Positions 17,039 to 18,013 of a stretch of DNA of 31,137 nt are shown one piece after another. The stretch comes from a virus. Lineage: Duplodnaviria; Heunggongvirae; Uroviricota; Caudoviricetes. A program made the position numbers and the translations under genes. The notes beneath the pieces were generated by a model. The model saw nothing but the letters and a program-made list of their open reading frames with translations, was not told where the DNA came from and made no database searches. Each line of letters begins with the position of its first letter. The first letter of the stretch is position 1. The stretch is from IMG/VR virus record IMGVR_UViG_2565956719_000009. The stretch is one strand, 5' to 3'.

Positions 17039-17053
17039 CACTTATTTTCCCTG

Positions 17054-17077
17054 GCTCGCTTTTGCGGGCTTTTTTTT
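17054..17077 (+). terminator. Rho-independent terminator after the tRNA cluster
   Basis: GCTCGC-TTTT-GCGGGC hairpin (one G-U pair) followed by T8. Confidence 0.6.
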
Positions 17078-17083
17078 AAATGT

Positions 17084-17298
17084 CTCACAATTCAGGCGGT
17101 TGACTGTTGTCTGGTTTGCGGGGAGTTTGTTAAAAGAAACTGGCATGGTGAATCCCCCTGTGCGGAGGGGCAATCAGCGAGTAGGTATATGGGATAATCG
17201 CGGATTCAGGTGCTGGTACTGAATTCACCGGGAGGCACCCGGCACCATGCAATGGCACATAGCGCCACTCTCCAGCCCCTCTCCGGAGGGGCTTTTCT
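17084..17298 (+). ncRNA. Structured noncoding module A (candidate sRNA unit: -35 TTGACT, two conserved hairpins, intrinsic terminator)
   Basis: Shares ordered conserved blocks with module B; hairpins CCCCCTGTGCGGAGGGG (17154-17170) and CACCGGGAGGCACCCGG (17226-17247); terminator GCCCCTC-TCCG-GAGGGGC-TTTTCT (17275-17298); no conserved ORF. Confidence 0.4.
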
Positions 17299-17487
17299 GT
17301 GCCGGATACATCACAGTTTCTGGAACCTTAGGTACTACAGTATCAGTCAGGGTGCTATATTTTCAGATGTGATGAAAGCCTGTCAGCAGGCAGGGCGTAT
17401 CGGAAATGACCCAGTAGAGAAAACGTTGACTCAGATACCGGTGCTGAGTTACCGGGAAACCGGCATCACATGACCGCTATCCTTCCA

Positions 17488-17515
17488 GGCCCATCCGCTC
17501 CGGTGGGCCTTTTTA
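17488..17515 (+). terminator. Rho-independent terminator-like hairpin between the two modules
   Basis: GGCCCA-(10-nt loop)-TGGGCC followed by TTTTT; a TTGACT hexamer lies ~55 bp upstream. Confidence 0.45.
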
Positions 17516-17551
17516 CTGCAGAAAACAGGTTCCCCGTTAAATGCTATGTTG

Positions 17552-17785
17552 CTCACAATTCAGTAAGTTGACAGTTGCCTGTCAGACTGGGCATTTGTTA
17601 AAAAAATTTCGCATGGTGAATCCCCCTGAGCGGAGGGGCGACTGGTGACGGTATAATCTCTGATTATCAAAACGAGAATGACGCGGGTTTAGTGGCACCG
17701 GGCTGAACTCACCGGGAGGCACCCGGCACCATGTGCATGATGATACAGATACGCGGCTTTAGCCCCTCTCCGGAGGGGTTTTCTT
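17552..17785 (+). ncRNA. Structured noncoding module B (paralog of module A: -35 TTGACA, TATAAT, two conserved hairpins, intrinsic terminator)
   Basis: CTCACAATTCAG..TTGACA (17568-17573)..CCCCCTGAGCGGAGGGG (17622-17638)..TATAAT (17652-17657)..CACCGGGAGGCACCCGG (17710-17730)..CCCCTC-TCCG-GAGGGG-TTTTCTT (17763-17785). Confidence 0.4.
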
Positions 17786-17798
17786 GTGGGCAAAAAAA

Positions 17799-17820
17799 GC
17801 CCGCGCTGGGAGACGCGGGC
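17799..17820 (-). terminator. Terminator-like hairpin oriented for leftward transcription
   Basis: GCCCGCG-(8 nt)-CGCGGGC perfect stem preceded on the plus strand by A7, which is a U-run after the hairpin on the minus strand. Confidence 0.35.
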
Positions 17821-18013
17821 GGCAAGGAATAAACAATAAAACGTGAAGTAATATTTCAGCTGGCGAATAATACCCCATAGTAATCACTCTGCGCAACTGC
17901 GCGGTCTTTTTCGAATTGCGGGCTGTCGTCTCTCTTCTGCCATTGTCCTGTAACTTCCGGACTTCAGCCCGCTCCTTATTTTACTCACAATATTATCCCG
18001 GCCGGGAGGATTC

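Follow-up and report, generated by a model that had tools for sequence, protein, structure and literature searches.

The STnc100 family of small RNAs (sRNAs) is among the most abundant sRNA families of enterobacterial genomes (PMC9029176). In Shiga-toxin (Stx) phages its members adjoin the toxin genes, and few genomic predictors of haemolytic uraemic syndrome (HUS) in E. coli O157:H7 are as strong as sequence variants in the stx-adjacent copy (PMC12711010). The DNA considered here, referred to as the window, is the whole 31,137-nucleotide (nt) stretch of IMG/VR virus record IMGVR_UViG_2565956719_000009, which is a lambdoid prophage, and the region of interest is a noncoding kilobase at 17040-18013 that matches the E. 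coli ATCC 11775 chromosome at 100% identity. There is a high probability that this kilobase contains an array of three independently transcribed STnc100-family sRNA genes and a convergent short sRNA gene, which occupy the moron region of the prophage and act through a scaffold-plus-seed mechanism.

The closest described systems

The array belongs to the same family as EcOnc27 of the Sakai prophage Sp5, which is called sRNA103 in strain EDL933 and is the STnc100 copy found 3' of stx2B, with PasD and EcOnc13 being more distant relatives. EcOnc27 is bound by Hfq and runs as Northern bands of ~235/247 nt, with EcOnc13 at ~187 nt (PMC4104026). EDL933 has 11 transcribed STnc100 copies, one of which has been confirmed by Northern blot (PMC5331693), and overexpression of sRNA103/EcOnc27 raises the fimZ and espA transcripts, as cited in PMC12711010. 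In prophages of enterohaemorrhagic E. coli the moron site 3' of PR' carries sRNA genes in convergent pairs, and an Hfq signal is seen there by cross-linking and analysis of cDNA (CRAC; Tree et al. 2014; PMC4104026).

PasD1 and PasD2 of enteropathogenic E. coli (EPEC) E2348/69 are 172-nt RNAs detected by Hfq RIL-seq, which ligates and sequences interacting RNAs, and by Northern blot, with a seed, UGUGAG, located in the linker next to the terminator on its 5' side (PMC8550237). PasD was linked to STnc100 in a 2026 preprint (bioRxiv 10.64898/2026.05.13.724894), and in a 2026 preprint PasD2 ranks first in abundance among the sRNA partners found in CsrA-bound chimeras. PasD1, PasD2 and EcOnc13 of Sakai Sp3 have in common with the window units the 5' start GCAUGGUGAAUCC, the helices P1 and P2, the CGGGAGGC hairpin, the promoter geometry and the slot between Q and the lysis genes. 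They differ in their low scores against the STnc100 model (38-41 bits, PasD2 reaching 41), in lacking the upstream CTCACAATTCAG..TTGAC block described below, and in having another linker, with the UGUGAG seed, and another terminator. No PasD-type copy is present in the window.

The order of genes in phage 933W is Q, then pR'/qut/terminators, ileZ-argN-argO, a terminator, stx2AB, an STnc100 copy (208 bits) and, on the opposite strand, AsxR (88 bits). AsxR is followed by the same terminator-like hairpin as in the window and by the leader (…TTTTACTCACAATATTATCCCGGCCGGGAGGATTCATG) that starts the SASA esterase gene nanS-p. Sakai Sp5 is built in the same way, its convergent partner likewise being AsxR. 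The original prediction, which was made from the window sequence without database searches, had stated that the position downstream of such tRNAs carries stxAB in Stx phages, and the 933W order bears this out. Since stx2AB lies between the tRNAs and STnc100 in 933W, the sRNA unit is a conserved neighbour of the stx slot and not an alternative cargo for it.

The window has the layout that Tree et al. 2014 described, a convergent pair of sRNAs at the moron site, as the array lies 3' of Q/PR' and 5' of the conserved phage open reading frame (ORF) and the lysis genes. EcOnc27 resembles the window array in promoter block, core, position and partner layout, and its 5' half is ~85% identical to that of unit B, the last of the three copies. 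It differs in having its own variable arm, linker and terminator, in following stx2AB instead of the tRNA terminator, in having AsxR as its partner and in being a single copy. The window holds no new kind of element, and the family, the stx-adjacent position, Hfq binding, the kinship with PasD and the convergent-pair layout have all been published (PMC4104026, PMC8550237, PMC5331693, PMC12370729, PMC12711010, bioRxiv 10.64898/2026.05.13.724894). The additions made here are small: a diverged third copy that falls under Rfam thresholds, the occurrence of tandem arrays, a promoter assignment, and the mosaic reassortment of arms and linkers. The interest of the window lies in its being a compact natural array, in which a non-Stx prophage from the type-strain lineage of E. 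coli brings together three differently "armed" copies and a convergent partner, and which is well suited to finding out what the STnc100 family does.

Units A and B

The two outer members of the array, units A and B, are plus-strand repeats that were placed correctly by the original prediction. Its central reading, that these are noncoding and structured sRNA-like paralogues with promoters and terminators of their own, located between tRNAs and lysis genes, is upheld. They share an 88-nt block (17084-17171 / 17552-17639) at 80% identity, a 31-nt block (17219-17249 / 17703-17733) at 97% and a terminator block (17274-17301 / 17761-17788) at 89%. Both are full-length matches to the Rfam STnc100 model RF02076, for which membership requires at least the gathering score of 47 bits across the full model: unit A scores 136.3 bits (E = 3.5e-30) and unit B 161 bits (E = 1.6e-36), with model positions 1-206 fully covered in each. 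The helices of the model and its prophage late-region setting are common to both units. The model starts ~30 nt upstream of the predicted +1, and hence takes in the promoter -10 region.

Unit A (17143-17298, plus strand) is predicted to give an RNA of ~156 nt, formed of a 5'-terminal helix P1 (GCAUGGUG/CACCAUGC), the hairpins P2-P5, a variable 3' linker AAUGGCACAUAGCGCCACUCUCCAG, and a terminator at 17274-17293 with its U-tract. Unit B (17611-17785, plus strand), at ~175 nt, has the same core, a different variable arm that holds the sequence TATAAT, a different linker, UGCAUGAUGAUACAGAUACGCGGCUUUAG, and a terminator at 17761-17780 with U-tract. RefSeq annotates no RNA gene within the noncoding kilobase. 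The claim that the region has no credible ORF was right insofar as there is no ORF with Pfam support; three mechanical ORFs of 81-93 amino acids do exist, and none of the three has a Pfam match. The short ORFs that begin at the shared ATGGTG are, as had been noted, 25 and 11 codons long. In 24 relatives this shared AUG opens reading frames of anything from 1 to 52 codons, which argues against coding.

The motif CTCACAAT is found at 17084, 17552 and 17984, the last being the third occurrence that had been reported in front of the DUF1737 gene. The window contains four sites where 1.23 are expected, and 3 of 100 shuffled sequences reach four; the copies at 17084 and 17552 are not independent of each other, because both belong to the duplicated unit. 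The copy at 17984 stands in the nanS-p leader, where 933W has the motif too, and the PasD seed in EPEC has CUCACA as its target motif (PMC8550237 motif table, Fig. S5).

A diverged middle copy and tandem arrays

The array was originally described as two units, and these are both real, but a third and strongly diverged member lies between them. This middle copy is an STnc100-like sRNA gene of ~150 nt at 17366-17516 on the plus strand, with its own terminator at 17487-17510 followed by a T-run. In a permissive scan RF02076 matches 17343-17516 at 30.1 bits (E = 3.1e-4), with a second allele at 30 bits, and the match ends at a hairpin (17488-17515) that had already been noticed as lying between the units. 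The score is below the gathering score of 47, and the middle copy is a structural relative, not a member of RF02076 by the curated threshold.

The structure of the middle copy has been kept to a much greater extent than its letters. It retains 28 of the 30 consensus pairs, eight of which are altered on both sides relative to unit A and are hence compensatory, and its minimum free energy (MFE) fold has the P1/P2/P4/P5/terminator architecture (z = -2.77) in different letters. It is an old paralogue with its structure preserved. Two alleles of the copy, with 85% identity between them, occur across 673 of 5426 complete E. coli genomes; they share a predicted extended -10 promoter, TG-c-TATATT (17353-17361, plus strand), and diverge in the flank upstream of it.

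The arrangement of A, middle copy and B is carried by 353 genomes and is also found in another prophage context, with the order Q - tRNA-Ile - DUF3927 - array - iraM. Across 127 loci there is one copy in 116, two in one, three in nine and five in one, the IMG/VR prophage contig L202. The last of these carries four members head to tail at 6985-7932, with a spacing of ~260-270 nt, and a fifth member 2 kb upstream.

Fold, covariation and mosaicism

Family members were gathered from IMG/VR (124 units, 49 of them unique), 933W, PhiR12_2 and the EPEC PasD loci, and 24 representatives were aligned. The RNAalifold consensus consists of P1 (GCAUGGUG/CACCAUGC), P2 (CCCCU/AGGGG), P4 (GCGGRUUCAG/CUGAAYUC), P5 (CCGGG/CCCGG) and the terminator. 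Standard pairs fill 95.4% of the pair cells, compared with 36-54% when the 3' partners are slid, and 13 pairs are changed on both sides, compared with 3.3 +/- 1.3 in shuffles, none of the 500 being as high; these pair statistics come from 24 related sequences and are to be read with that kinship in mind. The STnc100 consensus fold is backed by covariation, and the units have the secondary structure that defines the family. The idea that the CTCACAAUUCAG leader mimics the 5' strand of P4 was rejected, as a comparison of units A and B shows no covariation of the leader with P4.

The MFE fold of unit A is the consensus fold (-66.5 kcal/mol, z = -2.36). For unit B the fold constrained to the consensus has -62.3 kcal/mol and an alternative MFE fold -62.6. 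The linkers are mostly unpaired in these folds and are followed by a terminator with a U-tail, which is the architecture of an Hfq-dependent trans-acting sRNA.

In the alignment, hypervariability within the family is concentrated in the 3' linker and the variable arm. Arms b and c each occur with linker A and with linker B, four combinations in all (unit B itself; L228/L199; L131; PhiR12/L214), and arm and linker are thus reassorted as a mosaic between the conserved blocks.

Promoters, 5' ends and the upstream block

The promoter predicted for unit A (17107-17136, plus strand) has a -35 TTGTCT (17107-17112), a spacer of 18 nt and an extended -10 TG-t-TAAAAG (17128-17136), and six nucleotides separate the -10 from the predicted start at G17143. 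The unit B promoter (17575-17604, plus strand) is predicted in the same way with TTGCCT (17575-17580), N18 and TG-t-TAAAAA (17596-17604), followed by N6 and G17611. In 61 unique upstream regions both hexamers are conserved and the spacer is constant in length and variable in sequence, which is the signature of a promoter. The 5' end of PasD2 in EPEC E2348/69, as estimated from RNA sequencing, is the G of GCATGGTG (PMC8550237 Table S6). Upstream of it stands TTGACT-N18-TAAAAA-N7, with the geometry of units A and B, and the 5' end falls at the predicted +1.

Two promoter elements of the original prediction did not survive. The TTGACT and TTGACA that it had read as -35 hexamers lie 25 nt from the -10 and 7 nt upstream of the -35 assigned here, TTGTCT and TTGCCT at N18 being preferred, and they form part of an extra conserved block. 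The TATAAT of unit B (17652-17657) was likewise rejected: neither a -35 nor a TG accompanies it, it falls within a stem of the transcribed variable arm, and it is not conserved.

The extra block has the form AAAT-N3-CTCACAATTCAG-N4-TTGACT in unit A (17077-17105, plus strand), corresponding to -66 to -38 from the predicted start, and TATGTTG-CTCACAATTCAG-TAAG-TTGACA in unit B (17545-17573, plus strand). The form AAAT-N3-CTCACAATTCAG-N4-TTGAC is found only in the STnc100-proper subgroup, where it persists despite differing flanks further upstream, and is absent from the PasD subgroup. An upstream promoter read through TGTTAAAT, with a start inside CTCACAAT, would fit the EcOnc27 bands of 235/247 nt. 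It was not adopted, position -7 of the putative hexamer being variable (G/A/C/T) and the TG missing in unit A.

The HUS-predictive variants downstream of stx2B are a T>C at +90 and a deletion of one T at +103 (PMC12711010). They match upstream sequence of the L201 type (the Stx2 phage copies considered being L201 and L249/L124), equivalent to 17596-17610 in the window, and both changes are seen in Stx2 phages of the L201 type and of lineage IIb. By alignment, the +90 variant would turn the TG of the extended -10 into CG and the +103 deletion would shorten the discriminator of the STnc100/EcOnc27 promoter, leaving the mature RNA as defined here unchanged.

The convergent gene and the terminators

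A small-RNA gene on the minus strand converges on the array (17792-17896). Its predicted RNA runs from ~17860 to 17792 (69 nt), with a U-rich body and a terminator at 17820-17799 followed by U7, and its promoter would consist of a -35 TTGCGC (17896-17891), N18 and a -10 TATTAT (17872-17867). Both promoter and RNA have been kept across 22 unique homologues, whose terminator stems show compensatory changes, and the gene is closely similar to the EPEC RIL-seq sRNA candidate E2348C_1409.E2348C_1408.IGR (PMC8550237 Fig. S5). The terminator of unit B (17761-17780, plus strand) and that of the minus-strand gene (17820-17799) face each other ~20 nt apart, back to back as in the described convergent sRNA pairs.

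The gene resembles the anti-sRNAs AsxR, AgvB and EcOnc03 in its convergent position directly after the STnc100 terminator, its shortness and its single terminator hairpin. It differs from AsxR and AgvB in sequence and terminator, and any anti-sRNA activity of the window's type is putative. The minus-strand gene has no Rfam match, and an identity with AsxR or AgvB (RF02703/RF02702), families with a conserved 3' region of ~42 nt, was rejected, since neither covariance model matches at E <= 5 within 16700-18500 (933W scores 88 bits); its position is analogous. Among the collected loci the convergent partner is of the window's type in 35 and of the AsxR type in 27.

The region is rich in terminators. 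Between 15100 and 18500 there are 14 terminator-like sites, a four-fold enrichment over the 3.4 +/- 1.9 found in shuffles. The extra hairpins that had been reported between and after the units both score as terminators, at 17487-17510 on the plus strand and 17820-17799 on the minus strand. A further terminator-like hairpin, CTGCGCAACTGCGCGG followed by TCTTTTT (17889-17910, plus strand), was found in the terminator scan; it overlaps the minus-strand -35 and has been kept in 933W.

Proposed mechanism

The function of the array is most likely that of Hfq-associated trans-acting sRNAs whose variable 3' linkers are the seeds, by analogy with the relatives. Each plus-strand unit would be transcribed in the lysogen from a sigma-70 promoter with an extended -10 (-35, N18, TG-n-TAAAAR), to give an RNA of ~150-175 nt in which the first 8 nt are held in the terminal helix that closes a multi-hairpin core. 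The core would be followed by a hypervariable single-stranded linker of ~25-30 nt and then by the Rho-independent terminator with its U-tail, and linker and terminator together would form the module that binds Hfq and pairs with targets. In published relatives the evidence for transcription, for Hfq binding and, in PasD, for the location of the seed points the same way: the Hfq peak of EcOnc27 maps to the 3' 80 nt, comprising P5, linker and terminator, after a genome-version offset of ~138 nt was corrected with AsxR as the anchor, and that of EcOnc13 in Sakai Sp3 lies on the linker. The Northern probe listed for EcOnc13 has no match at the Sakai Sp3 locus and was not used.

As the three copies have three linkers, they would probably have different targets. 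The structured core with its paired 5' end most likely stabilises the RNA, and it may protect the 5' end or bind a further protein. The stacked terminators, in turn, would keep transcription out of nanS-p and the lysis genes as long as they are not overridden by Q-modified polymerase. A wider interpretation is that the family constitutes a modular platform of a scaffold and an exchangeable seed, in which the core has a function of its own, such as the binding of CsrA, arms and linkers are swapped by recombination, copies are stacked in tandem, and a cryptic diverged subfamily has been missed by standard Rfam annotation. Taken as a whole, this extended form is speculative and rather improbable.

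Several points weigh against the proposal of three sRNA genes with a convergent partner. The evidence for transcription comes from relatives and not from the window strain or the window copies, and the targets of the window linkers are putative. The middle copy scores under the Rfam gathering threshold, and a sequence-only profile built without it detects it weakly, at 12.8 bits, so that the case for this copy rests on structure. The conserved AAAT..CTCACAATTCAG..TTGAC block upstream of the -35 is not accounted for by the promoter model. EcOnc27 gives Northern bands of ~235/247 nt (PMC4104026), compared with 171 nt from the predicted +1 (L249, Sakai Sp5, 852-1022), which makes the predicted 5' end tentative for the STnc100-proper subgroup; the excess suggests a longer isoform with an upstream start, or processing of an stx2 read-through transcript. 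Dependence on Hfq may be partial, as deletion of hfq changes PasD levels little (log2 fold change 0.55 and -0.18; PMC8550237 Table S2). Finally, several of the EDL933 copies have ribosome footprints, with coverage values up to 3.2 (PMC5331693).

Alternative explanations

The alternative with most to commend it is that the units are cis-acting attenuators or insulators, as the original prediction had proposed in part, in which the first hairpin (…GGAGGGGC) competes with the terminator 5' strand GCCCCUC and the RNA itself is functionless. In such a scheme the units would set how much transcription from the tRNA promoter or pR' passes into nanS-p and the lysis genes, which is consistent with the five plus-strand terminators found within 1 kb upstream of the late genes. 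The competing pairing is thermodynamically possible in unit B, where the fold that joins the P2 3' strand to the terminator 5' strand is isoenergetic with the consensus (-62.6 vs -62.3 kcal/mol) and is favoured when the nascent transcript has reached 160 nt. However, unit A folds to the consensus with its terminator intact, and in prefix folding the P1-closed core forms before the terminator has been transcribed. Moreover, an identical first hairpin is combined with unrelated terminators in 933W, PasD, L244/L245, L207 and the middle copy, and the competing pairing is not conserved. Each unit also has its own conserved promoter, and relatives accumulate as discrete Hfq-bound RNAs (PMC4104026, PMC8550237). 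Attenuation is consequently regarded as unlikely. It is less probable still that the repeats are non-functional recombination scars from mosaic exchange between lambdoid prophages. The reassortment of arm and linker between conserved blocks and the abrupt switch of flanks at the left edge of each unit would be expected of scars, whereas the compensatory changes, the conserved promoter geometry and the terminators, intact even in the diverged middle copy, point to selection on an expressed and folded RNA, and relatives of the units are transcribed.

A coding role is a slightly weaker candidate again. The units might encode a small and nearly leaderless peptide from the AUG at +3 (MVNPPxRRG…), the conserved 5' block being coding sequence: 2 nt separate the AUG from the predicted 5' end, conservation extends over the first nine codons, and ribosome coverage values of 1.5-3.2 are recorded for some of the STnc100 copies of EDL933 (PMC5331693). 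Set against this, the reading frame varies over the range of lengths given above and is reduced to AUG-UGA in the middle copy, the conserved block coincides exactly with the helices P1 and P2, in which substitutions keep the pairing, coverage values are below 0.7 in six of the 11 EDL933 copies, and there is no Pfam family match. The least probable explanation, to which hardly any weight can be given, is that the units are a Q-dependent late promoter module (pR'/qut/tR') or duplicates of one, with the RNA as the counterpart of lambda 6S RNA or StxS. The layout of promoter, RNA of ~150-200 nt and terminator is like that of lambda pR'-tR', and lambda 6S RNA and StxS are also short terminated transcripts of the lambdoid late region. 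These RNAs differ in lying directly after Q, in lacking any sequence or model similarity to the units and in having a promoter that is the target of Q. The window has a separate promoter-like site and strong terminator directly after Q (~15120-15219), ~2 kb upstream of the array, and units A and B are found 2.0-2.5 kb to the 3' side of Q, away from the position of such a module. In 933W, similarly, pR'/qut/terminators are annotated directly after Q and the STnc100 copy is downstream of stx2B. The alignment to a late-promoter module that would have told against the original prediction was thus not found.

Surrounding features of the window

Upstream of the array the window has the order RusA, antiterminator Q (PF06323, 14438-15127), a small ORF, a DNA methylase and three tRNAs (16789-17038), and the noncoding kilobase is followed by the DUF1737 ORF (18014-18241), a P21-type holin, DUF1327, a lysozyme and Rz. 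The candidate late promoter and terminator directly 3' of Q (15120-15219, plus strand) consist of a pR', TCAATT-N17-TATAAA, and a tR' at 15199-15211 plus T9, assigned from sequence and the terminator scan, with Q identified by PF06323. They would yield a short StxS-like or 6S-like transcript.

The tRNA cluster (16789-17038, plus strand) comprises tRNA(CAT), tRNA-Arg(TCG) and tRNA-Arg(TCT), as found by ARAGORN, the Rfam tRNA model and RefSeq. The first of these (16789-16864) is called tRNA-Met (CAT) by ARAGORN and tRNA-Ile (ileZ) by RefSeq and in 933W, and the label of tRNA-Ile for a CAT anticodon presumably stems from the lysidine-modified reading. An intrinsic terminator, GGCTCGCTTTTGCGGGCT plus T8, follows the tRNAs at 17053-17078 on the plus strand, and a terminator is annotated at the equivalent site of 933W, 5' of stx.

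At the other end of the kilobase, the leader with the third CTCACAAT is followed by the DUF1737 ORF (together 17984-18241, plus strand), which is the truncated 5' end of the nanS-p / SASA esterase gene. The leader is identical to that of the full-length esterase gene in 933W, and RefSeq labels the ORF a truncated pseudogene.

IpeX, encoded in DLP12 near nmpC, is another prophage sRNA located between a Q homologue and the lysis genes. It was rejected as a relative, the family profile having no match in K-12 DLP12 571000-580000 even at E <= 10.

Elsewhere in the window, a hok/sok-type antitoxin RNA (RF01794, 120 bits) is found at 12253-12428 on the plus strand, with hokD annotated nearby in ATCC 11775, and DicF (RF00039, 61 bits) at 4537-4588 on the minus strand. 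The stretch of ~18940-20730, between the DUF1327 and lysozyme genes, is longer than its counterpart in ATCC 11775. It contains an ALIL frameshifting pseudoknot (RF01497, 120 bits) on the minus strand at 19798-19914, flanked by large minus-strand ORFs, which suggests an IS3-family insertion inside the lysis cassette of the window.

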